Assembly: GCA_043228905.1 (NCBI GenBank)
Contig: JBHGNT010000039.1
Coordinates: 124,001 to 188,000, forward strand
Reading direction: 5' to 3'
DNA: 64,000 nucleotides
DNA from: Azolla caroliniana
Lineage: Eukaryota; Plantae; Polypodiophyta
Shown: positions 3,001 to 23,500 of the stretch, one piece after another
Position numbering within the stretch: position 1 is the first letter of the stretch
How the letters are laid out: each line of letters begins with the position of its first letter
Position numbers and translations under genes: made by a program
Notes under the pieces: model-generated
Seen by the model: the letters and a program-made list of their open reading frames with translations, nothing else
Told to the model about the DNA's origin: nothing
Databases searched by the model: none

Positions 3001-6000
3001 AAATCCGATATCACACGAGCCAGGTATGAACATTGTAATTTACCTACTAGCACTTCTCAACTCACTCCTCAAATTTGGTAATTTCGTCATGTCTCTCCAC
3101 TTGAGTTTCAAAATCTTGATTTTTTAATTCCATATCATAGCTAGCGTTATTGGCTTCGATTCGCATGTTTGAACACAAAAATCCGATATCACACGAGCCA
3201 GGTATGAACATTTTAATTTACTCAAGGGCTCCTCTCAACTCCCTCCTCAAATTTTGTAATTTCGTCATGTCTCTCGACCTTAGTTTCAAAATCTTGATTT
3301 TTTCAATCCATATCATAGCTAGCGTTGTTGGCTTCGATTCGCATGTTTGAACACAAAAATCCGATATCACACTCGCTAGGTATGAACATTTTAATTTACT
3401 CAAGGGCTTCTCTCAACTCACCCCTCAAACTTGCTAATTTCTTCATGTCTCTCGACCTGAGTTTCAAAATCTTGATTTTTTAATTCCATATCATAGCTAG
3501 CGTTGTTAGCTTTGATTCGCATGTTTGAACACAAAAATCCGATATCACACGAGCCAGGTATGAACATTTTAATTTACTCAAGGGCTCCTCTCAACTCCCT
3601 CCTCAAATTTTGTAATTTCGTCATGTCTCTCAACCTGGGTTTCAAAATCTTGATTTTTTAATTCCATATCATAGCTAGCGTTGTTAGCTTCGATTTGCAT
3701 GTTTGAACACAAAAATCCGATATCACACTCGCTAGGTATGAACATTTTAATTTACTCAAGGGCTCCTCTCAACTCACTCCTCAAATTTGCTAATTTCGTC
3801 ATGTCTCTCGACCTTAGTTTCAAAATCTTGATTTTTTAATTCCATACCATAGCTAGCGTTGTTAGCTTCGATTTGCATGTTTGAACACAAAAATCCGATA
3901 TCACACTCGCTAGGTATGAACATTTTAATTTACTCAAGGGCTCCTCTCAACTCACTCCTCAAATTTGCTAATTTCGTCATGTCTCTCGACCTGAGTTTCA
4001 AAATCTTGATTTTTTAATTCCATATGATAGCTAGCGTTGTTAGCTTCGATTCGCATGTTTGAACACAAAAATCCGATATCACACGTGCTAGGTATAACCA
4101 TTTTAATTTAATCAAGGGCTCCTCTCAACTCCCTCGTCAAGGTTGCTAATTTCGTCATATCTCTCGACCTGAGTTTCAAAATCTTGATTTTTTAAATCCA
4201 TATCATAGCTAGCGTTGTTGGCTTCGATTCGCATGTTTGAACACAAAAATCCGATATCACACGAGCCAGGTATGAACATTGTAATTTACCTACTAGCTCT
4301 TCTCAACTCCATCCTCAAATTTGGTAATTTCGTCATGTCTCTCGACCTGAGTTTCAAAATCTTGATTTTTTAATTCCATATCATAGCTAGCGTTGTTAGC
4401 TTCGATTCGCATGTTTGAACACAAAAATCCGATATCACACGAGCTAGGTATGAACATTTTTATTTACTCAAGGGCTCCTCTCAACTCGCTCCTCAAATTT
4501 TGTAATTTCGTCATGTCTCTCGACCTGGGTTTCAAAATCTTGATTTTTTAATTCCATATCATAGCTAGCGTTGTTAGCTTCGATTCGCATGTTTGTAGAC
4601 AAAAATCCGATATCACACGAGCCAGGTATGAACATTGTAATTTACCTACTAGCTCTTCTCAACTCCCTCATCAAATTTGGTAATTTCGTCATGTCTCTCG
4701 ACCTGAGTTTCAAAATCTTGATTTTTTAATTCCATATCATAGCTAGCGTTGTTAGCTTCGATTCGCATGTTTGTACACAAAAATCCGATATCACACTCGC
4801 TAGGTATGAACATTTTAATTTACTCAAGGGCTCCTCTCACCTCACTCCTCAAATTTGCTAATTTCGTCATGTCTCTTGACCTGAGTTTCAAAATCTTGAT
4901 TTTTTATTCCATATCATAGCTAGCGTTGTTAGCTTCGATGCGCATGTTTGAACACAAAAATCCGATATCACACGAGCCAGGTATGAACATTTTAATTTAC
5001 TCAAGGGCTCCTCTCAACTTCCTCCTCAAATTTGCTAATTTCGTCATGTCTCTCGACCTTAGTTTCAAAATCTTGATTTTTTAATTCCATATCATAGCTA
5101 GCGTTGTTAGCTTCGATTCGCATGTTTGAACACAAAAATCCGATATCACACGAGTTAGGTATCAACATTTTTATTTACTCAAGGGTTCCTCTCAACTCCC
5201 TCGTCAAGGTTGCTAATTTCGTCATATCTCTCGACCTGAGTTTCAAAATCTTGATTTTTTAAATCCATATCATAGCTAGCGTTGTTGGCTTCGATTCGAA
5301 TGTTTGAACACAAAAATCCGATATCACACGAGCCAGGTATGAACATTGTAATTTACCTACTAGCTCTTCTCAACTCCCTCCTCAAATTTGCTAATTTCGT
5401 CATGTCTCTCGACCTGAGTTTCAAAATCTTGATTTTTTAATTCCATATCATAGCTAGCGTTGTTAGCTTCGATTCGCATGTTTGTACACAAAAATCCGAT
5501 ATCACACTCGCTAGGTATGAACATTTTAATTTACTCAAGGGCTCCTCTCACCTCACTCCTCAAATTTGCTAATTTCGTCATGTCTCTTGACCTGAGTTTC
5601 AAAATCTTGATTTTTTATTCCATATCATAGCTAGCGTTGTTAGCTTCGATTCGCATGTTTGAACACAAAAATCCGATATCACACGAGCCAGGTATGAACA
5701 TTTTAATTCACTCACGCAATCTTCCAACCTCACTCCTCAAATTTGCTAATTTCGTCATGTCTCTCGACCTTAGTTTCAAAATCTTGATTTTTTAATTCCA
5801 TATCATAGCTAGCGTTGTTAGCTTCGATTCGCATGTTTGAACACAAAAATCCGATATCACACGAGTTAGGTATCAACATTTTTATTTACTCAAGGGTTCC
5901 TCTCAACTCCCTCGTCAAGGTTGCTAATTTCGTCATATCTCTCGACCTGAGTTTCAAAATCTTGATTTTTTAAATCCATATCATAGCTAGCGTTGTTGGC

Positions 6001-9000
6001 TTCGATTCGAATGTTTGAACACAAAAATCCGATATCACACGAGCCAGGTATGAACATTGTAATTTACCTACTAGCTCTTCTCAACTCCCTCCTCAAATTT
6101 GCTAATTTCGTCATGTCTCTCGACCTGAGTTTCAAAATCTTGATTTTTTAATTCCATATCATAGCTAGCGTTGTTAGCTTCGATTCGCATGTTTGTACAC
6201 AAAAATCCGATATCACACTCGCTAGGTATGAACATTTTAATTTACTCAAGGGCTCCTCTCACCTCACTCCTCAAATTTGCTAATTTCGTCATGTCTCTTG
6301 ACCTGAGTTTCAAAATCTTGATTTTTTATTCCATATCATAGCTAGCGTTGTTAGCTTCGATTCGCATGTTTGAACACAAAAATCCGATATCACACGAGCC
6401 AGGTATGAACATTTTAATTCACTCACGCAATCTTCCAACCTCACTCCTCAAATTTGCTAATTTCGTCATGTCTCTCGACCTTAGTTTCAAAATCTTGATT
6501 TTTTAATTCCATATCATAGCTAGCGTTGTTAGCTTCGATTCGCATGTTTGAACACAAAAATCCGATATCACACGAGTTAGGTATCAACATTTTTATTTAC
6601 TCAAGGGTTCCTCTCAACTCCCTCGTCAAGGTTGCTAATTTCGTCATATCTCTCGACCTGAGTTTCAAAATCTTGATTTTTTAAATCCATATCATAGCTA
6701 GCTTTGTTGGCTTCGATTCGCATGTTTGAACACAAAAATCCGATATCACACGAGCCAGGTATGAACATTGTAATTTACCTACTAGCTCTTCTCAACTCCC
6801 TCCTCAAATTTGCTAATTTCGTCATGTCTCTCCACCTGAGTTTCAAAATCTTGATTTTTTAATTCCATATCATAGCTAGCGTTGTTAGCTTCGATTCGCA
6901 TGTTTGTACACAAAAATCCGATATCACACTCGCTAGGTATGAACATTTTAATTTACTCAAGGGCTTCTCTCAACTCACCCCTCAAACTTGCTAATTTCTT
7001 CATGTCTCTCGACCTGAGTTTCAAAATCTTGATTTTTTAATTCCATATCATAGCTAGCATTGTTAGCTTTGATTCGCATGTTTGAACACAAAAATCCGAT
7101 ATCACACGAGCCAGGTATGAACATTTTAATTTACTCAAGGGCTCCTCTCAACTCCCTCCTCAAATTTTGTAATTTCGTCATGTCTCTCGACCTGGGTTTC
7201 AAAATCTTGATTTTTTAATTCCATATCATAGCTAGCGTTGTTAGCTTCGATTCGCATGTTTGAACACAAAAATCCGATATCACACTCGCTAGGTATGAAC
7301 ATTTTAATTTACTCAAGGGCTCCTCTCAACTCACTCCTCAAATTTGCTAATTTCGTCATGTCTCTCGACCTTAGTTTCAAAATCTTGATTTTTTAATTCC
7401 ATACCATAGCTAGCGTTGTTAGCTTCGATTTGCATGTTTGAACACAAAAATCCGATATCACACTCGCTAGGTATGAACATTTTAATTTACTCAAGGGCTC
7501 CTCTCAACTCACTCCTCAAATTTGCTAATTTCGTCATGTCTCTCGACCTGAGTTTCAAAATCTTGATTTTTTAATTCCATATGATAGCTAGCGTTGTTAG
7601 CTTCGATTCGCATGTTTGAACACAAAAATCCGATATCACACGTGCTAGGTATAACCATTTTAATTTAATCAAGGGCTCCTCTCAACTCCCTCGTCAAGGT
7701 TGCTAATTTCGTCATATCTCTCGACCTGAGTTTCAAAATCTTGATTTTTTAAATCCATATCATAGCTAGCGTTGTTGGCTTCGATTCGCATGTTTGAACA
7801 CAAAAATCCGATATCACACGAGCCAGGTATGAACATTGTAATTTACCTACTAGCTCTTCTCAACTCCATCCTCAAATTTGGTAATTTCGTCATGTCTCTC
7901 GACCTGAGTTTCAAAATCTTGATTTTTTAATTCCATATCATAGCTAGCGTTGTTAGCTTCGATTCGCATGTTTGAACACAAAAATCCGATATCACACGAG
8001 CTAGGTATGAACATTTTTATTTACTCAAGGGCTCCTCTCAACTCGCTCCTCAAATTTTGTAATTTCGTCATGTCTCTCGACCTGGGTTTCAAAATCTTGA
8101 TTTTTTAATTCCATATCATAGCTAGCGTTGTTAGCTTCGATTCGCATGTTTGTAGACAAAAATCCGATATCACACGAGCCAGGTATGAACATTGTAATTT
8201 ACCTACTAGCTCTTCTCAACTCCCTCATCAAATTTGGTAATTTCGTCATGTCTCTCGACCTGAGTTTCAAAATCTTGATTTTTTAATTCCATATCATAGC
8301 TAGCGTTGTTAGCTTCGATTCGCATGTTTGTACACAAAAATCCGATATCACACTCGCTAGGTATGAACATTTTAATTTACTCAAGGGCTCCTCTCACCTC
8401 ACTCCTCAAATTTGCTAATTTCGTCATGTCTCTTGACCTGAGTTTCAAAATCTTGATTTTTTATTCCATATCATAGCTAGCGTTGTTAGCTTCGATGCGC
8501 ATGTTTGAACACAAAAATCCGATATCACACGAGCCAGGTATGAACATTTTAATTTACTCAAGGGCTCCTCTCAACTTCCTCCTCAAATTTGCTAATTTCG
8601 TCATGTCTCTCGACCTTAGTTTCAAAATCTTGATTTTTTAATTCCATATCATAGCTAGCGTTGTTAGCTTCGATTCGCATGTTTGAACACAAAAATCCGA
8701 TATCACACGAGTTAGGTATCAACATTTTTATTTACTCAAGGGTTCCTCTCAACTCCCTCGTCAAGGTTGCTAATTTCGTCATATCTCTCGACCTGAGTTT
8801 CAAAATCTTGATTTTTTAAATCCATATCATAGCTAGCGTTGTTGGCTTCGATTCGCATGTTTGAACACAAAAATCCGATATCACACGAGCCAGGTATGAA
8901 CATTGTAATTTACCTACTAGCTCTTCTCAACTCCCTCCTCAAATTTGCTAATTTCGTCATGTCTCTCGACCTGAGTTTCAAAATCTTGATTTTTTAATTC

Positions 9001-11876
9001 CATATCATAGCTAGCGTTGTTAGCTTCGATTCGCATGTTTGTACACAAAAATCCGATATCACACTCGCTAGGTATGAACATTTTAATTTACTCAAGGGCT
9101 CCTCTCACCTCACTCCTCAAATTTGCTAATTTCGTCATGTCTCTTGACCTGAGTTTCAAAATCTTGATTTTTTATTCCATATCATAGCTAGCGTTGTTAG
9201 CTTCGATTCGCATGTTTGAACACAAAAATCCGATATCACACGAGCCAGGTATGAACATTTTAATTCACTCACGCAATCTTCCAACCTCACTCCTCAAATT
9301 TGCTAATTTCGTCATGTCTCTCGACCTTAGTTTCAAAATCTTGATTTTTTAATTCCATATCATAGCTAGCGTTGTTAGCTTCGATTCGCATGTTTGAACA
9401 CAAAAATCCGATATCACACGAGTTAGGTATCAACATTTTTATTTACTCAAGGGTTCCTCTCAACTCCCTCGTCAAGGTTGCTAATTTCGTCATATCTGTC
9501 GACCTGAGTTTCAAAATCTTGATTTTTTAAATCCATATCATAGCTAGCTTTGTTGGCTTCGATTCGCATGTTTGAACACAAAAATCCGATATCACACGAG
9601 CCAGGTATGAACATTGTAATTTACCTACTAGCTCTTCTCAACTCCCTCCTCAAATTTGCTAATTTCGTCATGTCTCTCCACCTGAGTTTCAAAATCTTGA
9701 TTTTTTAATTCCATATCATAGCTAGCGTTGTTAGCTTCGATTCGCATGTTTGTACACAAAAATCCGATATCACACTCGCTAGGTATGAACATTTTAATTT
9801 ACTCAAGGGCTTCTCTCAACTCACCCCTCAAACTTGCTAATTTCTTCATGTCTCTCGACCTGAGTTTCAAAATCTTGATTTTTTAATTCCATATCATAGC
9901 TAGCATTGTTAGCTTTGATTCGCATGTTTGAACACAAAAATCCGATATCACACGAGCCAGGTATGAACATTTTAATTTACTCAAGGGCTCCTCTCAACTC
10001 CCTCCTCAAATTTTGTAATTTCGTCATGTCTCTCGACCTGGGTTTCAAAATCTTGATTTTTTAATTCCATATCATAGCTAGCGTTGTTAGCTTCGATTCG
10101 CATGTTTGAACACAAAAATCCGATATCACACGAGCTAGGTATGAACATTTTAATTTACTCAAGGGCTCCTCTCAACTCCCTCCTCAAATTTTGTAATTTC
10201 GTCATGTCTCTCGACCTGGGTTTCAAAATCTTGATTTTTTAATTCCATATCATAGCTAGCGTTGTTAGCTTTGATTCGCATGTTTGAACACAAAAATCCG
10301 ATATCACACGAGCCAGGTATGAACATTTTAATTTACTCAAGGGCTCCTCTCAACTCCCTCCTCAAATTTTGTAATTTCGTCATGTCTCTCGACCTGGGTT
10401 TCAAAATCTTGATTCTTTAATTCCATATCATAGCTAGCGTTGTTAGCTTCGATTCGCATGTTTGAACACAAAAATCCGATATCACACGAGCTAGGTATGA
10501 ACATTTTAATTTACTCAAGGGCTCCTCTCAACTCCCTCCTCAAATTTTGTAATTTCGTCATGTCTCTCGACCTGAGTTTCAAAATCTTGATTTTTTAATT
10601 CCATATCATAGCTAGCGTTGTTAGCTTCGATTCGCATGTTTGTACACAAAAATCCGATATCACACTCGCTAGGTATAAACATTTTAATTTACTCAATAGC
10701 TCTTCTCAACTCCCTCCTGAAATTTGGAAATTTCGTCATGTCTCTTGACCTGAGTTTCAAAATCTTGATTTTTTAATTCCATATCATAGCTAGCGTTGTT
10801 AGCTTCGATTCGCATGTTTGAACACAAAAATCCGATATCACACGAGCCAGGTATGAACATTTTAATTTACTCAAGGGCTCCTCTCAACTCCCTCCTCAAA
10901 TTTTGTAATTTCGTCATGTCTCTCGACCTTAGTTTCAAAATCTTGATTTTTTAATTCCATATCATAGCTAGCGTTGTTAGCTTCGATTCGCATGTTTGTA
11001 CACAAAAATCTGATATCACACTCGCTAGGTATGAACATTTTAATTTACTCAAGGGCTCCTCTCAACTCACTCCTCAAACTTGCTAATTTCTTCATGTCTC
11101 TCGACCTGAGTTTCAAAATCTTGATTTTTTAATTCCATATCATAGCTAGCGTTGTTAGCTTCGATTCGCATGTTTGAACACAAAAATCCGATATCACACG
11201 AGCCAGGTATGAACATTTTAATTTACTCAAGGGCTCCTCTCAACTCTCTCCTCAAATTTGCTAATTTCGTCATGTCTCTCGACCTTAGTTTCAAAATCTT
11301 GATTTTTTAATTCCATATCATAGCTAGCGTTGTTAGCTTCGATTCGCATGTTTGAACACAAAAATCCGATATCACACGAGTTAGGTATCAACATTTTTAT
11401 TTACTCAAGGGTTCCTCTCAACTCCCTCGTCAAGGTTGCTAATTTCGTCATATCTCTCGACCTGAGTTTCAAAATCTTGATTTTTTAAATCCATATCATA
11501 GCTAGCGTTGTTGGCTTCGATTCGCATGTTTGAACACAAAAATCCGATATCACACGAGCCAGGTATGAACATTGTAATTTACCTACTAGCTATTCTCAAC
11601 TCCCTCCTCAAATTTGGTAATTTCATCATGTCTCTCGACCTGAGTTTCAAAATCTTGATTTTTTAATTCCATATCATAGCTAGCGTTGTTAGCTTCGATT
11701 CGCATGTTTGTACACAAAAATCCGATATCACACTCACTAGGTATGAACATTTTAATTTACTCAAGGGCTCCTCTCAACTCACTCCTCAAACTTGCTAATT
11801 TCTTCATGTCTCTCGACCTGAGTTTCAAAATCTTGATTTTTTAATTCCATATCATAGCTAGCGTTGTTAGCTTCGA
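1..11876. repeat. 178-bp satellite tandem array, left block (~67 monomers), putative centromeric/pericentromeric satellite
   Basis: The monomer anchor ATGAACATT/ATCAACATT recurs at 1, 179, 356 and 534 (period 178, occasionally 177). Conserved core: TTTCAAAATCTTGATTTTTTAATTCCATATCATAGCTAGCGTTGTTAGCTTCGATTCGCATGTTTGAACACAAAAATCCGATATCACAC. The array ends at ...AGCTTCGA (11876). A centromeric role is inferred from monomer size and organisation only. Confidence 0.98.
3700..10100. repeat. Higher-order repeat: 20-mer (3557 bp) followed by a 16-mer (2846 bp); boundaries approximate
   Basis: Rare variants recur at +3557: ATACCAT 3844/7401, CATATG 4021/7578, GTAGAC 4595/8152, TTCGATG 4934/8491. Others recur at +2846: GCTTTG 6701/9547, CTCCAC 6830/9676. 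Confidence 0.85.
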
Positions 11877-11882
11877 GATCAT

Positions 11883-13089
11883 AGCAAAGGTATTGGTGGA
11901 AGAACATGTATAAAGATGTCGCGGAGTTCACAGAAAGCTGCGAGAAATGCCAAGTCTACTCCGGGGTCCGACACCGAGATGAGCTGCATCCAACATTCTC
12001 ACCGACAATCAACTTCAAGTGGATGGTCGACATTGTAGCTATGCCGACCGGGATTGGACAAAAGAAATACTTGGTGTTAGCTCGAGAAGATCTCACAAAC
12101 CAAGTTGAAGGTCGAGCGCTTCGGAGGAAAACGTGTGCCGCGGTGTGCCAATTTCTTTTGGAAGAAGTGTTTTGTAGGTACGGCTGCGTAGGACAAGTGA
12201 TTGCGGACCGGGGAGAACTCGACTCGGACAAAGCTAGGGGATTCTTCGCCAAACATGGAGTTCGGTTAACGTTGACAACGGCCTACAATCCGGAGGCCAA
12301 CGGGAAGATCGAACGAGGACATAGTCCGATCGTGAAAGCACTTGCGAAGGCATGCGACGGAAGGGTGAAGGATTGGCCACAAATGCTTCCGTATGCACTA
12401 TGGGCGGATCGGACGACGCATAGCTCCGTGACCGGTTATATGCCGGCAGAACTCATGACCGGACAAGCACCGGTAATGCCAACGGAAACCGCAATCGCGA
12501 CATGGACAATACTACCGTGGAAGGAAGAGATGAGCCGGGAAGAACTACTAGCGGTCCGGATACGACAACTGGAGGGAAGACCGAAAGATGTAGCGGAAGC
12601 GTCACGCCGACAACAAGAAGCACGGTTCCGGAACAAAAGCCGGTTCGACACAAAGCACCGACTACGACCGAGGAGGATTGAAGAAGGAGATTGGGTGATC
12701 GTCTATGATAGTAGCTTGGACCATCAACATACAACGATGCGGAAATTCGCGAAAAGGTGGTTCGGGCCGTACGAGGTTCGGAAGGTCTTCGACAACGGGA
12801 CGTACCGACTGTCCGAGTTGGATGGAACAATACTACGAGTGCCTATAGCCGGGAAGCGGGTGAAGATTTTCAAGAAGCGGACCGACGACAAACCTTATGT
12901 GATCCAAGTCGAGGTCGACAACGAGGAGCAATCGGACGAAGACCACAATGATGCGGGAAGCGAAGAAAGTGGATTACAACTCATAGTCGACATAAGGGGA
13001 GATTCGGAGGAAGCTTCGGATGAAGACGGATACGAAGAATCAAGAACTTCGGCACATACCGGAGGATGTGCGGGTTTGGAGGGGGCGAG
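11883..13089 (+). mobile_element. 5'-truncated second copy of the element's internal region (integrase + PPT), sharing the LTR at 13090-13990
   Basis: 11883-13990 matches 18451-20558 at a constant offset of 6568 bp. All ORF-track translations over the two copies are identical. Confidence 0.96.
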
Positions 13090-13102
13090 TGTCGTAGTGT
13101 AG
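11906..13102 (+). pseudogene. Truncated pol fragment: integrase core + C-terminus (398 aa), lacking the two His of the HHCC finger
   Basis: Identical to the last 398 aa of ORF2. Begins at an internal Met 23 bp after the truncation point. Confidence 0.9.
13078..13089 (+). other. Polypurine tract of the truncated copy
   Basis: Identical GGAGGGGGCGAG abutting the LTR at 13090. Confidence 0.85.
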
Positions 13103-13174
13103 GTTGCACACTATGTGGAAATTATATTTTTGTCCCTCCGGATAGAGAATGGAGTGCTCGGTGAGAACCGGAAG

Positions 13175-13340
13175 AAAACGGCATACCGGCAAGAAGGAAG
13201 AAAACGGCATACCGGCAAGGAGGGAAAACGGCATACCGGCAAGAAGGAAGAAAACGGCATACCGGCAAGGAGGGAAAACGGCATACCGGCAAGGAGGAAA
13301 AACGGCATACCGGCAAGGAAGAAAACGGCATACCGGCAAG
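13175..13340 (+). repeat. Minisatellite in LTR U3: 7 copies of AAAACGGCATACCGGCAAG with purine spacers
   Basis: Cores at 13175, 13201, 13225, 13251, 13275, 13299 and 13322 (periods 26, 24, 26, 24, 24, 23). Confidence 0.95.
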
Positions 13341-13702
13341 GAAGAGCCGGATAAAGAGACATAAATGTAAAAAGAAAGGAAATACTCACTACTGCGCAGG
13401 GCGTGATTCGAACTCTGCACCTCCACGTTGACAAACCCCAACCTTACCATTACATTAACTTATCTTAAGTGTTTTAAATATAGATTTAATACGTATAAGA
13501 CCTTTATTTATGCATACCTTTATTAAAAGGTAAATCGTGTATTTTTTTAATATATGAAAAAGAAAAACGCGAGACACTAAAAATAACTCATGCACATCTA
13601 GCGTGCATGAGCCCTATACTTAGGAAATAAAAAGCATCACATGCACATTTAGTGGACATGAACACTAAAAAAAAAAGCATGAAGCCATGCTTAGCTCTTC
13701 CT

Positions 13703-13716
13703 TCCTTATATAAGGA
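13703..13716. promoter_or_regulatory. Candidate LTR TATA box inside a perfect 14-bp palindrome
   Basis: TCCTTATATAAGGA contains TATATAA on both strands and lies ~275 bp before the LTR end. The copy in the other LTR is at 20271-20284. Confidence 0.6.
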
Positions 13717-13994
13717 GGAGAGAAATATGTAAAGGGTTGTTGATTATTTGGATTAAGTATTAATTAATACAAAAATTATTCGTGGGATTCACGATTTATA
13801 CGTCTACTTCTCTCTTAACACCCTAAGTACCAATTAATATAGTATACTCGTGTGATTCACGAGTTTCTTATCTTTCTCTTCGTTATTTATTCATAATTAA
13901 TCTCTATCTCACGAACTTCTTTCTCCTAGTCCAAGACCTCTGTGGTTCCCACCCGACTCACGCAACGATCCGGAGCCGAAAGGCACGACACAGT

Positions 13995-14012
13995 TGGTGA
14001 ACCCGACGTGAA
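13995..14012 (+). other. Primer binding site complementary to the 3' end of plant cytosolic tRNA-Trp(CCA)
   Basis: TGGTGAACCCGACGTGAA is the reverse complement of TTCACGTCGGGTTCACCA, the 3' 18 nt of plant tRNA-Trp as recalled from Arabidopsis. It lies 4 nt (CAGT) after the LTR end. Confidence 0.88.
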
Positions 14013-14052
14013 GACGGGTGGCAAGGAGGTGGAGGCTCAACAAGCTAACAAT

Positions 14053-16068
14053 ATGATGGCGATGTTCGAACGGATGCTTCAAGAACAACGCACGATGTCG
14101 GAGATTTCGGCATCAGTAGAGCGGCTCGTGCAACGCAACGGGCAATTTAATGGTAAGGATGTGTCGCGATATTTGCAGGACTACAAGGCGGAGATGCTCC
14201 GGTGCCGGGCTTCGGAAGGACTGCAAGTGACATCCTTTAACCGGGTGGCGACCGACGGGCTTCAAGGGAGTATCCACGGGTTGCAACAACAAAATCCGAC
14301 GTGGGAAGCATTCGAAGGGGCGTTAAAGACCACGTTTGCCATCGAGGACTCCTCCAAGGCAACGCGGAGGGGATTCGAGGATTGGGTGGAAACGTCAGGT
14401 AAGGGGCTGAAGGTCCTCGAAGTGTTTTCGACATTCGAAAGTCGGTTCGGGAGGTTGTCCACGAGAGATCAAACTATTCTTGCACCGGACAAAGTCATCA
14501 TGTTTTTGCGAGCTGTGGACGTCCGGGACCGGAAAGATCTCGGAGTGCTTCTTGAGGACACGACCACCGAAAGCGGCCTCACCGAAACATGGGAAAGCGT
14601 GCGGGATATCGTCGCGCGGTACACGAAGAGGGGGCAATGGCTTGCCAACGAAGAAAAGAGGGTTTCGGAACCGATTCCGAAACCGAGAACGGGACTGGAA
14701 GACCATCAACCGAGGGCTCGGGAGATTACGGCCGAGAAGGGAGTCGACGCGTCTACGGTGGAGCAGCTGCTGAAGGAGATGGAGAATCTAAAGATCGCGA
14801 TGGTGAAGAAGTCGGATGATCGCCCCACAAGCTCCAAATATACGGATCGACGGTGCATATGGTGCGATAGCGCCGAACACGATCGGAGGGATTGCGACGA
14901 CCATAAGGAGGCGCTACGACGGGATCTCATCTACTACGAGGGAAACCGGATTCATTCGATGGACTCTCGAAAGCCACTCCGACCGAACTTCCGGAAAGGC
15001 GGCATGAAGAAGGTGCTCGAGGAGGAGTTAGCGGCAAGAAGCAACTATGCGACAACCGCGGGAATATGTGTCGGGGAGTCAACGGGAGCGAAGGCGTCTT
15101 TCTGGCCGGAGGTGCTAGGAAACACCGAGAAAACCGACTCCAACGATATCCGAAACACCGCGGAAGGCGTCCGGGAAGCTACGGGATGGGAGTGCCCTGT
15201 CGACAAGAATAGCATATACGCCCTGTGTCAATTACATGAGGTGTATGTGGACGAGAAACGACGGCGCACGGAGGATGCGGCCGGACCATCGAAGATACCG
15301 GAAAGTTGGAACTCCGGAGGTAAGGGAAAAGAAAAGGCGACTCCGGCATTCAAGCTCGCCTCGGACATAGAACAACAAACCGACTTGAAAAGAGTGTTCG
15401 AGGAAAGAATCTTGGATAGCCGGGTCGATTTTTCGCTGCGGGAACTACTCGGAATAGCGAAGAAGGAGTTTCACGATCTTCTCGTGGATCTCGTGAAAAG
15501 GAAGAGACAAAGTACGGAGGAAAATGCTCCAAGGGTGAATGCAAATACCGTTTCAATGAACGACACCGAAGTGGAAGGCGAAATTCCGAACTCCCACTAT
15601 ACAAGGCCACACTGGGCACGTGCGACCACGGAGACTCCGGTCCGAATCGGCAACATCAAAGAACCCGTGCTAGCATTGATTGATCACGGATCGGAGATCA
15701 ACTTGATGTCCAAGGAGTTCTACCGAAAGGGGAAGTGGCCTATAAACACCAACCATGGATGGAAGATTCGGGCAGCCACGAAAACGACAGAAGACCTATT
15801 TGCGGCTTGTCCGGATGTGACGGTAAAGATCGGGGATGTAGAAATTGACCAAAATTTCTTTGTGCAGGATGAGGTTTCACATGCTGTCATCCTCGGCCAA
15901 CCCTTTATCACGGCTTCACGGATGGAGACGAAGGTGCTCGATAGTGGTGCGGCTTTTGCGCGAATTCGGAGCCAAAACGGAGGGAAATCCGTCCAATTCC
16001 TAACGGTGCCGGCAAATCACGAAAGGAACAGGAGGGAACTCTTGTCCCAAGTGAGAATGGATTTTTAA
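14053..16068 (+). CDS. gag: ORF1: Gag (capsid-like region + CCHC zinc knuckle) fused to aspartic protease, 671 aa from the first ATG
   Basis: The ORF track opens at GTG 13942 inside the LTR; the first in-frame ATG after the PBS is 14053. CIWCDSAEHDRRDC is a CX2CX4HX4C knuckle (14854-14895). Retropepsin motifs ALIDHGSEINLM (DHG at 15682-15690) and VILGQPF are present. Confidence 0.92.
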   Translation: MMAMFERMLQEQRTMSEISASVERLVQRNGQFNGKDVSRYLQDYKAEMLRCRASEGLQVTSFNRVATDGLQGSIHGLQQQNPTWEAFEGALKTTFAIEDSSKATRRGFEDWVETSGKGLKVLEVFSTFESRFGRLSTRDQTILAPDKVIMFLRAVDVRDRKDLGVLLEDTTTESGLTETWESVRDIVARYTKRGQWLANEEKRVSEPIPKPRTGLEDHQPRAREITAEKGVDASTVEQLLKEMENLKIAMVKKSDDRPTSSKYTDRRCIWCDSAEHDRRDCDDHKEALRRDLIYYEGNRIHSMDSRKPLRPNFRKGGMKKVLEEELAARSNYATTAGICVGESTGAKASFWPEVLGNTEKTDSNDIRNTAEGVREATGWECPVDKNSIYALCQLHEVYVDEKRRRTEDAAGPSKIPESWNSGGKGKEKATPAFKLASDIEQQTDLKRVFEERILDSRVDFSLRELLGIAKKEFHDLLVDLVKRKRQSTEENAPRVNANTVSMNDTEVEGEIPNSHYTRPHWARATTETPVRIGNIKEPVLALIDHGSEINLMSKEFYRKGKWPINTNHGWKIRAATKTTEDLFAACPDVTVKIGDVEIDQNFFVQDEVSHAVILGQPFITASRMETKVLDSGAAFARIRSQNGGKSVQFLTVPANHERNRRELLSQVRMDF

Positions 16069-16122
16069 AGCGGACTGTTGCGGAGTGGGGAAGTGATAGT
16101 CCGAGAAGCCCTGATACCCCAC
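16059..16122 (+). promoter_or_regulatory. Predicted -1 programmed ribosomal frameshift element (slippery heptamer + H-type pseudoknot)
   Basis: G_GAT_TTT at 16059-16065 directly before the ORF1 stop, then a 5-nt spacer. Stem 1: CGGACTGTTGC (16071-16081) with GTGATAGTCCG (16093-16103). Stem 2: loop GTGGGG (16085-16090) with CCCCAC (16117-16122). Confidence 0.8.
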
Positions 16123-19100
16123 ACAGGAAGAAAACTCTCGGAGCAAAACAAGTACGAATCGGGCCGGATGGGGCATCTACGTACACGGTCGTAACCGGAG
16201 GAATGAAGAAACAATACCGACAAGTGGAGGATAAGTTACGGTCGGCATCAATAATAAAAGAAGACGAAGAAATCGTGGGAGTGATCGAGGAAGTGTTCTA
16301 TGGGAATACACTACAACGGCTTGAAGAGCTTGCGGAAGATAAAAGCCAAGGGAACCGGGTAGTCCCGGTGGAATCGGTCGAGATGTACGAGATCGTTGCG
16401 AAAATGGGGCCGGATGCGCTCCGCAAAGAAGAAGCAATGGTAAGTACGAAATACAAGACCGTGGAGAAGAAGGTAAAACCGGCCGCGGGACCACTACCCG
16501 CCGATAGCGAACAAAAGAGGAAAGAAGTCTCGGGAGATCCGACACTTCGGAAGACCGTGGATATCGGACATGCCTTCACAGATGAGACCCGGAAGAAACT
16601 TCGGATCGGTGGAGGTGGGTTCCTCTTACAAGAAGAAGAAAAACGGTTTCGAGAGATGTTGGAGCAACATGGCAAAGCATTCGCGTTCACATCGAGGGAG
16701 ATCGGATGCATTGATCCAAAGATAGTGGAGCCGATGGTGATTTTCACGATTGATCATGTACCGTGGAACCTGAAGCCGATTCCGGTGCCACGGGCGCATA
16801 TTCCGAAAGTCATCGACTTGCTCAAGGAGAAGGTGGCGATGGGGATTCTAGAGCCATCAAGTGCTCCGTACTCAAATCGATGGTTTACGGTTCCGAAGAA
16901 GAATGGGTCACTCCGATTCATCCAAGACTTGCAACCGGTGAACAAGGTCACGATCCGGAACTCGGGAGTCGGTCCGATAGTGGACGAATTCGCGGAAGCT
17001 TTTGCCGGACGTGCGATATACTCCATCGGGGACCTATACTCGGGGTATGACCAATTCCAACTAGCCGTGGAGAGCCGAGACATCACTACCATGCGGACAC
17101 CGATAGGACTAGTTCGAATGTGCACACTACCACAAGGAGCGACAAACTCGGTTGCACATATGATGAACGCGATGAACAAGGTGCTTCGAGATTGCATCCC
17201 GGAGATAACGATGCCGTTTCTAGATGACATTCCGATGAAAGGATGCGCGGTGGAAGAAAAAGATGAGACTATGGATGATCGGGGATGCCGAAAGTTCGTG
17301 GTCGACCATATTCATGATTGCGAGAAAGTGTTGCGAAAGCTAGAAGATGTGCACCTAACACTTTCCGGGGAGAAATCGGCATTCGGGCAAGAAGAAATAT
17401 TGGTGGTCGGACATCTATGTGGACCCTACGGCCGAAGACCGTCACCAACAAAGATCGATGCGATTCAAGCTATGAAGGAAGTATGTGAGTCAACATCGGA
17501 AGTCCGAAGGTTTCTGGGTGCGTGTGCATTCTATCACATATGGATTCCGCACTATGCACATATAGCGGACCCGCTCTATCACTTGTTGCGGAAAGGTAAG
17601 AAATTCGAGTGGAAACCGGAACACACTAAAGCCATGAGGAAGCTCAAGAAGACACTATGGAGGGCGGAATCACTTAAGAAGCCAAGCTACGAGCGGCCAA
17701 TCATAGTAACGGTTGATACAAGTCCAACCGGTATCGGGTGGGTCATCAATCAAGCCGACTCGGATGGTTCGCGGTATCCGATCCGATTTGGAGCAAAGGT
17801 CCTCAACGAAAGGCAACGCGGATATGCACAAGTCAAAAGAGAGTTGTGGGGAGTCGTGTCGGCGATAAAATCGGATCGGGATTATTTGATCGGAGCTGAA
17901 GTGGTGATCGAGACGGATTGTCTTCCGATACTCGGGATGATGCGGTGTTGTACGATACCGGATGTGGCTATGCTAAGGTGGATTGCATATGTCAAGTCAC
18001 TTAATCCGGAGGTTCGACACATCTCGGGGAAGGACAACGCGGTAGCGGACATGTTATCGAGGGCGCGGTTTGAAGACGACATAACCGAATCAGATAATGA
18101 AGAAGTTTCTGAAGACTACTTCACGTCAGAACACATATGCCGAGTGAACGTGATCCGAGAATTCCGGGAAGAAGAATACGAGGGGGAAACCTTGATGATC
18201 GGGAAGATGCTACAAGAGGTCGAGGATTCATCCAATGATAAAGAAAGGAGAGCCGAGATCCGAAGGAAGAAGAGGCAAGTCCAAAAGTTCTTTTTGGAAA
18301 ACGGTTTAATATGGAGGACGCCGAAAAGACCGGATGGGATACCACTTCGAGTAGTCGGGACGAAAGAGCAACGAAACCGGATAATGTCCGAGTTCCACGA
18401 ATCCGATTGGGCTGGACATCGAGGAACATGGGCAACTTTTGTGAAAATCAAGCAAAGGTATTGGTGGAAGAACATGTATAAAGATGTCGCGGAGTTCACA
18501 GAAAGCTGCGAGAAATGCCAAGTCTACTCCGGGGTCCGACACCGAGATGAGCTGCATCCAACATTCTCACCGACAATCAACTTCAAGTGGATGGTCGACA
18601 TTGTAGCTATGCCGACCGGGATTGGACAAAAGAAATACTTGGTGTTAGCTCGAGAAGATCTCACAAACCAAGTTGAAGGTCGAGCGCTTCGGAGGAAAAC
18701 GTGTGCCGCGGTGTGCCAATTTCTTTTGGAAGAAGTGTTTTGTAGGTACGGCTGCGTAGGACAAGTGATTGCGGACCGGGGAGAACTCGACTCGGACAAA
18801 GCTAGGGGATTCTTCGCCAAACATGGAGTTCGGTTAACGTTGACAACGGCCTACAATCCGGAGGCCAACGGGAAGATCGAACGAGGACATAGTCCGATCG
18901 TGAAAGCACTTGCGAAGGCATGCGACGGAAGGGTGAAGGATTGGCCACAAATGCTTCCGTATGCACTATGGGCGGATCGGACGACGCATAGCTCCGTGAC
19001 CGGTTATATGCCGGCAGAACTCATGACCGGACAAGCACCGGTAATGCCAACGGAAACCGCAATCGCGACATGGACAATACTACCGTGGAAGGAAGAGATG

Positions 19101-19670
19101 AGCCGGGAAGAACTACTAGCGGTCCGGATACGACAACTGGAGGGAAGACCGAAAGATGTAGCGGAAGCGTCACGCCGACAACAAGAAGCACGGTTCCGGA
19201 ACAAAAGCCGGTTCGACACAAAGCACCGACTACGACCGAGGAGGATTGAAGAAGGAGATTGGGTGATCGTCTATGATAGTAGCTTGGACCATCAACATAC
19301 AACGATGCGGAAATTCGCGAAAAGGTGGTTCGGGCCGTACGAGGTTCGGAAGGTCTTCGACAACGGGACGTACCGACTGTCCGAGTTGGATGGAACAATA
19401 CTACGAGTGCCTATAGCCGGGAAGCGGGTGAAGATTTTCAAGAAGCGGACCGACGACAAACCTTATGTGATCCAAGTCGAGGTCGACAACGAGGAGCAAT
19501 CGGACGAAGACCACAATGATGCGGGAAGCGAAGAAAGTGGATTACAACTCATAGTCGACATAAGGGGAGATTCGGAGGAAGCTTCGGATGAAGACGGATA
19601 CGAAGAATCAAGAACTTCGGCACATACCGGAGGATGTGCGGGTTTGGAGGGGGCGAGTGTCGTAGTGTAG
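16065..19670 (+). CDS. pol: ORF2: Pol (reverse transcriptase, RNase H, integrase), probably expressed by -1 frameshift from ORF1; first ATG at 16203
   Basis: RT motifs: WFTVPKKNGSLRFIQD, DLYSGYDQ, LPQG, FLDD (17217-17228). RNase H motifs: VDTS, KRELWG, ETDC, NAVADMLSR. Integrase: HHCC (H..AGH..CEKC), D-D-E (MVDIV/ADRG/IERGH) and GPY motif (19332-19340). The frame is open from 15945 and is -1 relative to ORF1. Start given at the predicted shift site. Confidence 0.93.
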   Translation, partial: LKRTVAEWGSDSPRSPDTPHRKKTLGAKQVRIGPDGASTYTVVTGGMKKQYRQVEDKLRSASIIKEDEEIVGVIEEVFYGNTLQRLEELAEDKSQGNRVVPVESVEMYEIVAKMGPDALRKEEAMVSTKYKTVEKKVKPAAGPLPADSEQKRKEVSGDPTLRKTVDIGHAFTDETRKKLRIGGGGFLLQEEEKRFREMLEQHGKAFAFTSREIGCIDPKIVEPMVIFTIDHVPWNLKPIPVPRAHIPKVIDLLKEKVAMGILEPSSAPYSNRWFTVPKKNGSLRFIQDLQPVNKVTIRNSGVGPIVDEFAEAFAGRAIYSIGDLYSGYDQFQLAVESRDITTMRTPIGLVRMCTLPQGATNSVAHMMNAMNKVLRDCIPEITMPFLDDIPMKGCAVEEKDETMDDRGCRKFVVDHIHDCEKVLRKLEDVHLTLSGEKSAFGQEEILVVGHLCGPYGRRPSPTKIDAIQAMKEVCESTSEVRRFLGACAFYHIWIPHYAHIADPLYHLLRKGKKFEWKPEHTKAMRKLKKTLWRAESLKKPSYERPIIVTVDTSPTGIGWVINQADSDGSRYPIRFGAKVLNERQRGYAQVKRELWGVVSAIKSDRDYLIGAEVVIETDCLPILGMMRCCTIPDVAMLRWIAYVKSLNPEVRHISGKDNAVADMLSRARFEDDITESDNEEVSEDYFTSEHICRVNVIREFREEEYEGETLMIGKMLQEVEDSSNDKERRAEIRRKKRQVQKFFLENGLIWRTPKRPDGIPLRVVGTKEQRNRIMSEFHESDWAGHRGTWATFVKIKQRYWWKNMYKDVAEFTESCEKCQVYSGVRHRDELHPTFSPTINFKWMVDIVAMPTGIGQKKYLVLAREDLTNQVEGRALRRKTCAAVCQFLLEEVFCRYGCVGQVIADRGELDSDKARGFFAKHGVRLTLTTAYNPEANGKIERGHSPIVKALAKACDGRVKDWPQMLPYALWADRTTHSSVTGYMPAELMTGQAPVMPTETAIATWTILPWKEEMSREELLAVRIRQLEGRPKDVAEASRRQQEARFRNKSRFDTKHRLRPRRIEEGDWVIVYDSSLDHQHTTMRKFAKRWFGPYEVRKVFDNGTYRLSELDGTILRVPIAGKRVKIFKKRTDDKPYVIQVEVDNEEQSDEDHNDAGSEESGLQLIVDIRGDSEEASDEDGYEESRTSAHTGGCAGLEGASVVV
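19646..19657 (+). other. Polypurine tract (plus-strand primer)
   Basis: GGAGGGGGCGAG abutting the TG start of the 3' LTR. Confidence 0.85.
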
Positions 19671-20558
19671 GTTGCACACTATGTGGAAATTATATTTTTG
19701 TCCCTCCGGATAGAGAATGGAGTGCTCGGTGAGAACCGGAAGAAAACGGCATACCGGCAAGAAGGAAGAAAACGGCATACCGGCAAGGAGGGAAAACGGC
19801 ATACCGGCAAGAAGGAAGAAAACGGCATACCGGCAAGGAGGGAAAACGGCATACCGGCAAGGAGGAAAAACGGCATACCGGCAAGGAAGAAAACGGCATA
19901 CCGGCAAGGAAGAGCCGGATAAAGAGACATAAATGTAAAAAGAAAGGAAATACTCACTACTGCGCAGGGCGTGATTCGAACTCTGCACCTCCACGTTGAC
20001 AAACCCCAACCTTACCATTACATTAACTTATCTTAAGTGTTTTAAATATAGATTTAATACGTATAAGACCTTTATTTATGCATACCTTTATTAAAAGGTA
20101 AATCGTGTATTTTTTTAATATATGAAAAAGAAAAACGCGAGACACTAAAAATAACTCATGCACATCTAGCGTGCATGAGCCCTATACTTAGGAAATAAAA
20201 AGCATCACATGCACATTTAGTGGACATGAACACTAAAAAAAAAAGCATGAAGCCATGCTTAGCTCTTCCTTCCTTATATAAGGAGGAGAGAAATATGTAA
20301 AGGGTTGTTGATTATTTGGATTAAGTATTAATTAATACAAAAATTATTCGTGGGATTCACGATTTATACGTCTACTTCTCTCTTAACACCCTAAGTACCA
20401 ATTAATATAGTATACTCGTGTGATTCACGAGTTTCTTATCTTTCTCTTCGTTATTTATTCATAATTAATCTCTATCTCACGAACTTCTTTCTCCTAGTCC
20501 AAGACCTCTGTGGTTCCCACCCGACTCACGCAACGATCCGGAGCCGAAAGGCACGACA
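19658..20558 (+). repeat. 3' LTR (901 bp)
   Basis: TGTCGT...ACGACA, preceded by a PPT and followed immediately by satellite. No differences from 13090-13990 seen by eye, including the A10 run and the minisatellite copy number. Confidence 0.96.
19743..19908 (+). repeat. Same 7-copy minisatellite in the 3' LTR
   Basis: Same units at offset +6568. Confidence 0.95.
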
Positions 20559-23500
20559 ACGTTATTTTCAAAATCTTGATTTTTTAATTCCATATCATAG
20601 CTAGCGTTGTTAGCTTCGATTCGCATGTTTGAACACAAAAATCCGATATCACACGAGCCAGGTATGAACATTTTAATTTACTCAAGGGCTCCTCTCAACT
20701 CACTCCTCAAATTTGCTAATTTCGTCATGTCTCTCGACCTTAGTTTCAAAATCTTGATTTTTTAATTCCATATCATAGCTAGCGTTGTTAGCTTCGATTC
20801 GCATGTTTGAACACAAAAATCCGATATCACACGTGCTAGGTATAACCAATTTAATTTACTCAAGGGCTCCTCTCAACTCACTCCTCAAATTTGCTAATTT
20901 CGTCATGTCTCTCGACCTTAGTTTCAAAATCTTCATTTTTTAATTCCATATCATAGCTAGCGTTGTTAGCTTCGATTCACATGTTTGAACACAAAAATCC
21001 GATATCACACGAGTTAGGTATCAACATTTTTATTTACTCAAGGGTTCCTCTCAACTCCCTCATCAAGGTTGCTAATTTCGTCATATCTCTCGACCTGAGT
21101 TTCAAAATCTTGATTTTTTAAATCCATATTATAGCTAGCGTTGTTGGCTTCGATTCGCATGTTTGAACACAAAAATCCGATATCATACGAGCCAGGTATG
21201 AACATTGTAATTTACCTACTAGCTCTTCTCAACTCCCTCCTCAAATTTGCTAATTTCGTCATGTCTCTCGACCTTAGTTTCAAAATCTTGATTTTTTAAT
21301 TCCATATCATAGCTAGCGTTGTTAGCTTCGATTCGCATGTTTGAACACAAAAATCCGATATCACACGTGCTAGGTATAACCAATTTAATTTACTCAAGGG
21401 CTCCTCTCAACTCACTCCTCAAATTTGGTAATTTCGTCATGTCTCTCGACCTTAGTTTCAAAATCTTGATTTTTTAATTCCATATCATAGCTAGCGTTGT
21501 TAGCTTCGATTCGCATGTTTGGACTCAAAAATCCGATATCACACGAGTTAGGTATCAACATTTTTATTTACTCAACGGTTCCTCTCAACTCCCTCGTCAA
21601 GGTTGCTAATTTCGTCATATCTCTCGACCTGAGTTTCAAAATCTTGATTTTTTAAATCCATATCATAGCTAGCGTTGTTGGCTTCGATTCGCATGTTTGA
21701 ACACAAAAATCCGATATCACACGAGCCAAGTATGAACATTGTAATTTACCTACTAGCTCTTCTCAACTCCCTCCTCAAATTTGCTAATTTCGTCATGTCT
21801 CTCGACCTTAGTTTCAAAATCTTGATTTTTTAATTCCATATCATAGCTAGCGTTGTTAGCTTCGATTCGCATGTTTGGACACAAAATTCCGATATCACAC
21901 GAACCAGGTATGAACATTTTAATTCACTCACGCGCTCTTCCAACCTCACTCCTCAAATTTGGTAATTTCTTCATGTCTCTCGACTTGAGTTGCAAAATCT
22001 TGATTTTTTAATTCCATATCATAGCTAACGTTGTTAGCTTCGATTCGCATGTTTGAACACAGAAATCCGATATCACACGAGCCAGGTATGAACATTTTAA
22101 TTTACTCAAGGGCTCCTCTCAACTCCCTCCTCAAATTTTGTAATTTCGTCATGTTTCTCGACCTGGGTGTCAAAATCTTGATTTTTTAATTCCATATCAT
22201 AGCTAGCGTTGTTAGCTTCGATTCGCATGTTTGAACACAAAAATCTGATATCACACTCGCTAGGTATAACCATTTTAATTTACTCAAGGGCTCCTCTCAA
22301 CTCACTCCTCAAATTTGGTAATTTCGTCATGTCTCTCGACCTTAGTTTCAAAATCTTGATTTTTTAATTCCATATCATAGCTAGCGTTGTTAGCTTCGAT
22401 TCGCATGTTTGAACACAAAAATCCGATATCACACGAGCCAGGTATGAACCAATTTAATTTACTCAAGGGCTCCTCTCAACTCCCTCCTCAAATTTGCTAA
22501 TTTCGTCATGTCTCTTGACCTGAGTTTCAAAATCTTGATTTTTTAATTCCATATCATAGCTAGCGTTGTTAGCTTCGATTCGCATGTTTGAACACAAAAA
22601 TCCGATATCACACGAGCCAGGTATGAACATTTTAATTTACTCAAGGGCTCCTCTCAACTCCCTCCTCAAATTTGGTAATTTCGTCATGTCTCTTGACCTG
22701 AGTTTCAAAATCTTGATTTTTTAATTCCATATCATAGCTAGCGTTGTTAGCTTCGATTCGCATGTTTGAACACAAAAATCCGATATCACACGTGCTAGGT
22801 ATAACCAATTTAATTTACTCAAGGGCTCCTCTCAACTCACTCCTCGAATTTGGTAATTTCGTCATGTCTCTCGACCTTAGTTTCAAAATCTTGATTTTTT
22901 AATTCCATATCATAGCTAGCGTTGTTAGCTTCGATTCGCATGTTTGAACACAAAAATCCGATATCACACGAGCCAGGTATGAACATTTTAATTTACTCAA
23001 GGGCTCCTCTCAACTCACTCCTCAAATTTGCTAATTCCGTCATGTCTCTCGACCTTAGTTTCAAAATCTTGATTTTTTAATTCCATATCATAGCTAGCGT
23101 TGTTAGCTTCGATTCGCATGTTTGAACACAAAAATCCGATATCACACGTGCTAGGTATAACCAATTTAATTTACTCAAGGGCTCCTCTCAACTCACTCCT
23201 CGAATTTGGTAATTTCGTCATGTCTCTCGACCTTAGTTTCAAAATCTTGATTTTTTAATTCCATATCATAGCTAGCGTTGTTAGCTTCGATTCGCATGTT
23301 TGAACACAAAAATCCGATATCACACGAGTTAGGTATCAACATTTTTATTTACTCAAGGGTTCCTCTCAACTCCCTCGTCAAGGTTGCTAATTTCGTCATA
23401 TCTCTCGACCTGAGTTTCAAAATCTTGATTTTTTAATTCCATATCATAGCTAGCGTTGTTAGCTTCGATTCGCATGTTTGTACACAAATATCCGATATCA

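Follow-up and report, generated by a model that had tools for sequence, protein, structure and literature searches.

In plant Ty3/Gypsy retrotransposons, which carry long terminal repeats (LTRs), the coding region can be broken after the protease. Ogre and Retand, of the Tat lineage, keep Gag and protease apart from reverse transcriptase (RT), RNase H and integrase; they are organised as GAG-PROT:_:RT and, in 49%, as GAG-PROT:s:RT, respectively (Neumann et al. 2019, PMC6317226). According to the available part of this survey, Ogre uses a spliced spacer and Retand a single stop codon, with an additional RNase H of archaeal type in both. The plant Ty3/Gypsy elements Tcn1 and Selgy also have overlapping frames, but before the protease (GAG:o:PROT), and no lineage in the survey's table has overlapping frames after it (PMC6317226). 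As of 2003, the arrangements cited for plant elements in the available part of a 2016 review were +1 only (PMC5009743). The element described here separates the same domains as Ogre and Retand. It lies in a 64,000-nt stretch of Azolla caroliniana DNA (GCA_043228905.1, contig JBHGNT010000039.1, positions 124,001 to 188,000), hereafter the window, whose own numbering is used throughout. Judging from sequence comparison, programmed -1 ribosomal frameshifting stimulated by a pseudoknot very probably joins its Gag-protease to its RT-RNase H-integrase. The unusual feature is the overlapping -1 frame with its pseudoknot rather than the break after the protease itself. An initial annotation of the window had held that plant Ty3/Gypsy elements mostly have a single open reading frame (ORF) or a break before the protease, which the layouts of Ogre and Retand contradict.

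Red clover necrotic mosaic virus has the slippery heptamer GGAUUUU. In wheat germ extract, the G_GAU_UUU of pea enation mosaic virus directs -1 frameshifting, its spacer being 5-6 nt long and its stop adjacent, and the same heptamer is listed for four other umbraviruses; it is non-canonical compared to X_XXY_YYZ but is a tested variant (available text of PMC4737148). The element shares the heptamer, the spacer and the neighbouring stop with this umbravirus signal. In that source, frameshifting in the virus is stimulated by a hairpin that has a bulge and pairs over a long range, whereas a compact local pseudoknot is predicted for the element. A shift after the protease also occurs in gag-pol of Rous sarcoma virus (RSV), whose protease lies within Gag, and in pro-pol of mouse mammary tumour virus (MMTV) and human T-cell leukaemia virus (HTLV). 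RSV has a larger double pseudoknot, and beta- and deltaretroviruses shift twice. The RSV slippery site directly precedes the stop, as in the element (PMC12789967, PMC12002268), and the pseudoknot of retroviral signals is placed 5-8 nt past the slippery site (PMC12789967), as far as the available parts of these papers go. The likeness between the element and retroviruses probably reflects convergent design.

In the window, ORF1 (14053-16068; all features are on the forward strand) ends ATG GAT TTT TAA. The heptamer GGATTTT, i.e., G_GAU_UUU, occupies 16059-16065, and the stop codon follows at 0 nt (16066-16068). ORF2 is open in the -1 frame from 15945 to 19670 (1241 codons), and its first ATG (16203) lies 134 nt past the ORF1 stop. 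The initial annotation had described two ORFs 134 bp apart, a -1 frame free of stops from 15945 to that ATG and the heptamer at the end of ORF1; all of its coordinates were reproduced. Its transframe reading, Met-Asp-Phe followed by the -1 frame Leu codon at 16065-16067, is also present in the sequence. Downstream, it had placed an 11-bp stem with three G-U pairs at a distance of 5 nt (16071-16081 with 16093-16103). In the window, each of the five segments folded has this stem 1 as its minimum-energy structure, with pair probabilities of 0.92-1.0, and the 37-nt hairpin reaches a z of -4.84 (0 of 200 shuffles were equally stable). For the 60-nt stretch, z is only -1.09, and 31 of 200 shuffles were as stable. 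The proposed pairing of the loop GUGGGG (16085-16090) with CCCCAC (16117-16122) is a real Watson-Crick complementarity of 6 bp and would form stem 2 of a predicted H-type pseudoknot with loops of 3, 2 and 13 nt, but in the window alone it is within chance (p = 0.065). Since neither the 60-mer nor stem 2 is significant in the window alone, the case rests on the relatives of the element.

Related loci were compared at the DNA level (the best 80 of 166) and ORF1 homologues at the protein level (the best 120 of 271, the named ones being from Physcomitrium, Riccia and Adiantum and thus pointing, by themselves, to a seed-free plant as host). ORF1 is open from the protease on in 74 of the 80 loci, and 59 of these also have a pol match and are informative on the frame. 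Pol lies in the -1 frame in 57 of them, in the +1/-2 frame in two and in frame with ORF1 in none. The 57 loci carry GGATTTT (50), GGATTTC (4), GGGTTTT (2) or GGTTTTC (1), all of which are able to slip by -1. G_GAT_TTY is found at the site in 68/80 loci, compared to 6/89 Asp-Phe (DF) dipeptides inside pol ORFs. The ORF1 stop follows 0 nt past the heptamer in 61 of 70 loci, and all three stop codons are used (TAA 29, TAG 28, TGA 13). A subgroup (L057, L063, L065, L070 and L077) has its stop 15 nt past the heptamer, inside stem 1.

The C-termini of the 120 ORF1 homologues are similarly restricted. The chains end in DF (72), NF (3) or GF (3), a few residues past DF/GF (26), in VFx (2) or otherwise (14); 103/120 were counted as ending at or just past DF, NF or GF. 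Since G_GAU_UUU or G_GGU_UUU requires it, the preceding residue is expected to be encodable with a final G. This was so in 100/100 of the DF/GF cases tallied, and 27.6% of nearby residues cannot be encoded in this way. The remote representatives P0263, P0266, P0261 and P0216 still end in DF or NF. Among 38 further proteins with the full region, 10 end in D/N/G-F, seven shortly after, six nearby in another way, and 15 are longer, one of these (P0219) continuing into RT. A second search with P0025 gave no VFx-ending family besides P0035 among the 120 matches listed. In contigs of four further sequencing runs, TAA to TAG is the only well-supported change listed over 16059-16146 (top 40 of 159 rows), and no common indel is listed at the slippery site; several divergent contigs start aligning at 16056-16060. 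The break is common to families down to about 57% protease identity and, on these comparisons, is a trait of the lineage. In-frame copies, or loss of the heptamer and stems in other copies, had been named in the initial annotation as evidence against a frameshift; none of the 59 loci is in frame, and both stems covary.

The RNA structure was followed in a nearly gap-free alignment of 53 distinct 72-nt junctions. Exact duplicates, six loci without the heptamer, L033 (where the contig ends) and L078 were left out, the last having no matching stems and being probably a non-homologous pick. Two-sided changes are found in 9 of the 11 pairs of stem 1. Its covariation is 0.364, against 0.218 for shuffled data (reached in 0/500) and at most 0.15 when the stem is slid. 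The conserved core is 8 bp long (16072-16079 with 16095-16102) and begins 6 nt past the heptamer; the outermost pair is kept in 18/53 junctions and the top two pairs in 25/53 and 19/53. Because the outermost pair is poorly kept, the spacer of the family as a whole measures 6 nt instead of 5, and the 11-bp stem at 5 nt describes the window but not the family. Folding z falls to about -3.4 at offsets of +11 to +13 nt, and at the 23 other offsets it stays at -0.74 or above. The residues encoded across both stems vary widely, so protein constraint fails to explain the pairing. Rfam gave no match over 13000-20600.

All 53 junctions can form a stem 2 of 4 bp or more, and 50 of them one of 5 bp or more; the mean score is 15.8, compared to 11.5 for shuffled sequences and 10.6 for segments further downstream. 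Loop columns 31-35 show G-C, A-U, U-A and C-G swaps together with the partner, so that the covariation across family members proposed as a check in the initial annotation is found in altered loops with matching partners as well as in stem 1. This bears on the alternative that survives best, namely that frameshifting is real and the stimulator is a plain stem-loop with stem 2 being incidental. The match in the window is a low-complexity pairing of a G-run with a C-run, with the non-significant p-value given above, and stem 2 is just 4 bp long in 3/53 junctions, all of which speaks for this alternative. However, where a family has an altered loop, its partner is altered as well, and own partners outscore foreign ones (16 against 8.7 in L053, 19 against 12.8 in L049, 20 against 11.6 in L050 and 17 against 11.8 in L012). 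The length of loop 3, 10-17 nt in 52/53, also argues against a plain stem-loop, which is therefore considered unlikely. The junctions combine a -1 overlap, a heptamer that is a tested variant, a spacer within 5-9 nt and two covarying stems in H-type order, all established computationally. It appears to be a genuine recoding signal shared by the whole lineage: its kind is known, its position and clade are new.

Several points weigh against pseudoknot-stimulated frameshifting. The case is computational throughout. Most loci derive from a handful of related assemblies; they are collapsed multi-copy contigs, non-independent and partly redundant. The shuffle counts ignore this relatedness, and the stem 2 register was picked for each sequence by best score, which inflates the pairing; the counts therefore overstate independence. 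In stem 2, the own partner outscores the mean foreign partner in only 37/53 junctions, and p-values for single loci are often above 0.05. The protease match to Asp_protease_2 (E 0.0025) misses its curated Pfam cut-off. On an 8.8-kb contig, the distant singleton P0219 has protease and RT joined in a single reading frame; it may be a genuine in-frame relative or a copy altered by mutation. Furthermore, 14 relatives are longer than ORF1, most of them with RT domains; all are gene models from Riccia or Physcomitrium, and none comes from metagenome gene calls, the source of most near-length matches. The junction regions of these models are shortened or mutually inconsistent, which suggests, judged from the proteins alone, that the joins were predicted by annotation. 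The ORF of P0219 begins just before the zinc knuckle.

In the proposed mechanism, the pseudoknot 6 nt downstream would stall ribosomes that hold Asp- and Phe-tRNA on GAU UUU. Re-pairing would be perfect for the A-site tRNA on UUU and imperfect for the P-site tRNA on GGA, as described for this heptamer in pea enation mosaic virus. Ribosomes that fail to shift would terminate at the next codon, and only a fraction of ribosomes would yield reverse transcriptase and integrase. Protease and Gag would then be produced at a ratio of one to one. Both the stoichiometric protease and the rationing of RT depend on frameshifting being real; given that, the ORF layout would imply them.

Other routes to pol were also considered. 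The available text of the survey describes Ogre as splicing at the same junction (PMC6317226), GTGAG lies just upstream of the heptamer in the window, and 14 gene models bridge the junction. Nevertheless, an Ogre-type intron, spliced from some transcripts and joining protease and RT, is very improbable. Over the range tested (-45 to +11 nt), no GT donor is common to more than 10 of the 53 junctions, and GTRAG is present in at most 1/53 at any offset. In the -1 loci, the open pol frame extends back across the heptamer, without a stop-rich spacer, and the joins of the bridging gene models disagree with each other. Separate translation of pol from an internal AUG (16203 in the window), by reinitiation or from a second transcript, is given equally little credence. 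An in-frame Met precedes the KYK motif in all 46 junctions whose pol frame reaches it, but its position is scattered from codon 3 to codon 111 (48 in the window, 108 in its nearest relative L002), and the heptamer and the fixed frame are left unexplained. Least probable are slippage during transcription along the T run and a chance indel in a defunct copy: most loci do have five T after GGA, but the run is shorter in the GGATTTC loci, the contigs of the four runs list no common indel at the site, the break is shared by divergent families, both ORFs are open and the LTRs are identical. The dead-copy form is already largely refuted.

Two sister families, L049 (junction at 2496-2560) and L050 (2834-2900), are candidates for a -2 shift. 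Their ORF1 ends AG_GUU_UUU plus one codon, and pol is open for 1106 and 1181 codons, respectively, in the +1/-2 frame. Both stems are retained, with a stem 2 of 8 bp in each, and the stem is one base nearer to the site. In a tree of 30 rows (25 loci and the window, each with at least 520 open pol residues, and four gene models), L049 and L050 form a clade (100/100; end branches 0.12 and 0.09) among the -1 families. Five more of the listed members of a 35-member cluster have the L050-type ORF1 end. Three other runs gave short contigs that align over the junction without gaps and differ at 4-5 letters; none of these spans 31 letters on each side of it. After a -2 slip, the A-site Phe tRNA would re-pair perfectly in both families, and after a +1 slip it would sit on UUG in L050. 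The site is similar to GG_GUU_UUU, the -2/-1 site of PRRSV (the virus behind porcine reproductive and respiratory syndrome), where shorter spacers favour -2 (PMC4937337), as they do on U6A (PMC3458567), according to the available parts of both papers. The PRRSV nsp2TF shift needs a protein complex and no RNA structure, whereas L049 and L050 keep both stems. The reading slightly favoured here is that a whole lineage of Ty3/Gypsy elements in seed-free plants rations RT by a pseudoknot frameshift after the protease and that the L049/L050 branch switched from -1 to -2 through AG_GUU_UUU and the loss of one spacer base, with the stems kept. Support for -2 is limited to these two families, and +1 is the alternative. 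If true, a eukaryotic retroelement would have a naturally occurring -2 frameshift driven by RNA structure, and the spacer-tension model would have a test in nature. Among the -2 cases that the available part of the 2016 review names (phage Mu, arteriviruses and Trichomonas virus 1), there is no retroelement (PMC5009743).

The element most likely belongs to the Phygy clade, the non-chromovirus Ty3/Gypsy elements of Physcomitrium; the fit was judged by described features, and the tree has no Phygy-labelled rows. As in Phygy, the interior is almost fully coding; the Pfam scan and the ORF list showed no chromodomain, no archaeal RNase H and no additional ORF, and Physcomitrium proteins are among the homologues. 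The primer binding site (13995-14012), which we take to be of the tRNA-Trp type, recurs as the same 18-mer upstream of ORF1 in 37/80 loci. Phygy is described with a Trp-type primer binding site (81%), an NCGN target and an ORF organisation that was not determined, and the available text names no frameshift for it (Neumann et al. 2019, PMC6317226). The right flank ACGT fits the 4-bp target; the left end is truncated, and the duplication is not visible. At 7469 bp from LTR to LTR, the element is slightly below the observed 7656-9968 bp of Phygy (PMC6317226). Membership in Ogre/Retand was rejected, as there is no archaeal-type RNase H and no intron or single-stop layout between protease and RT. 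RLG1 was ruled out as the family, having a chromodomain in the available text of PMC7466625. No description of this signal was found among the papers that literature searches listed; Repbase, GyDB and subscription journals were outside the search and may hold one. Viral contigs were searched as well and gave no relative.

The block at about 11880-20558 is a Ty3/Gypsy LTR retrotransposon with Gag, protease, RT, RNase H and integrase in this order between LTRs, together with a primer binding site and a polypurine tract. The LTRs (TGTCGT...ACGACA; 13090-13990 and 19658-20558) are 901 bp long and identical, and about seven tandem copies of a purine-rich unit of 21-25 nt lie near the start of both (13168-13340 in the first). 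ORF1, taken from its first ATG, encodes Gag with a CCHC knuckle (14854-14895), DUF4100 (Pfam, E 2.9e-6) and the aspartic protease (about 15637-15906). The active-site motif of the latter (15682-15696) reads D-H-G-S-E in place of D-T/S-G and is invariant in 68/68 aligned homologues; a PDB sequence search with the protease region gave no match. In ORF2, a linker of about 130 codons precedes RT (about 16890-17414), RNase H (about 17610-17987) and integrase (about 18363-18860), and the Pfam scan found no chromodomain. In all relatives, about 130 poorly conserved codons (16066-16450 in the window) separate the shift site from the conserved KYK motif upstream of RT. The polypurine tract is at 19646-19657.

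On its left, the 5' LTR adjoins the last 1.2 kb of the interior of a second element (11883-13089), i.e., the 3' part of the integrase and a polypurine tract. Because 11883-13990 matches 18451-20558 without mismatch over 2108 bp, the arrangement (11873-13990) is read as a truncated tandem with a common LTR. One and the same ORF end also appears two times in the ORF list. Truncated tandems sharing an LTR are reported to be common in plants (available text of PMC11899658). The identity suggests a very recent origin of the partial copy or an assembly collapse, and a few filler bases at its left junction with the satellite suggest a deletion. The block is GC-richer than the surrounding 178-bp satellite array, which fills the rest of the window (1-11872 and 20563-64000) with about 310 units (310 copies matched), mostly 90-99% alike. 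The array looks centromeric. The insertion site is an ACGT variant of one satellite unit, and ACGT follows the 3' LTR at 20559-20562.

For a plant clade left undetermined in the reference survey, these results show how the ORFs are organised and offer a likely mechanism of expression. Pseudoknot-stimulated frameshifting would be a third solution to the break between protease and RT in plant Ty3/Gypsy elements, beside the intron and the stop codon. It would also account for gene callers splitting these elements or bridging them with made-up joins. Moreover, the natural variants of this compact predicted pseudoknot, over 50 in number, form a ready library for work on frameshifting in plants. If the -2 sister clade is real, the spacer-length model would become directly testable with natural sequences.

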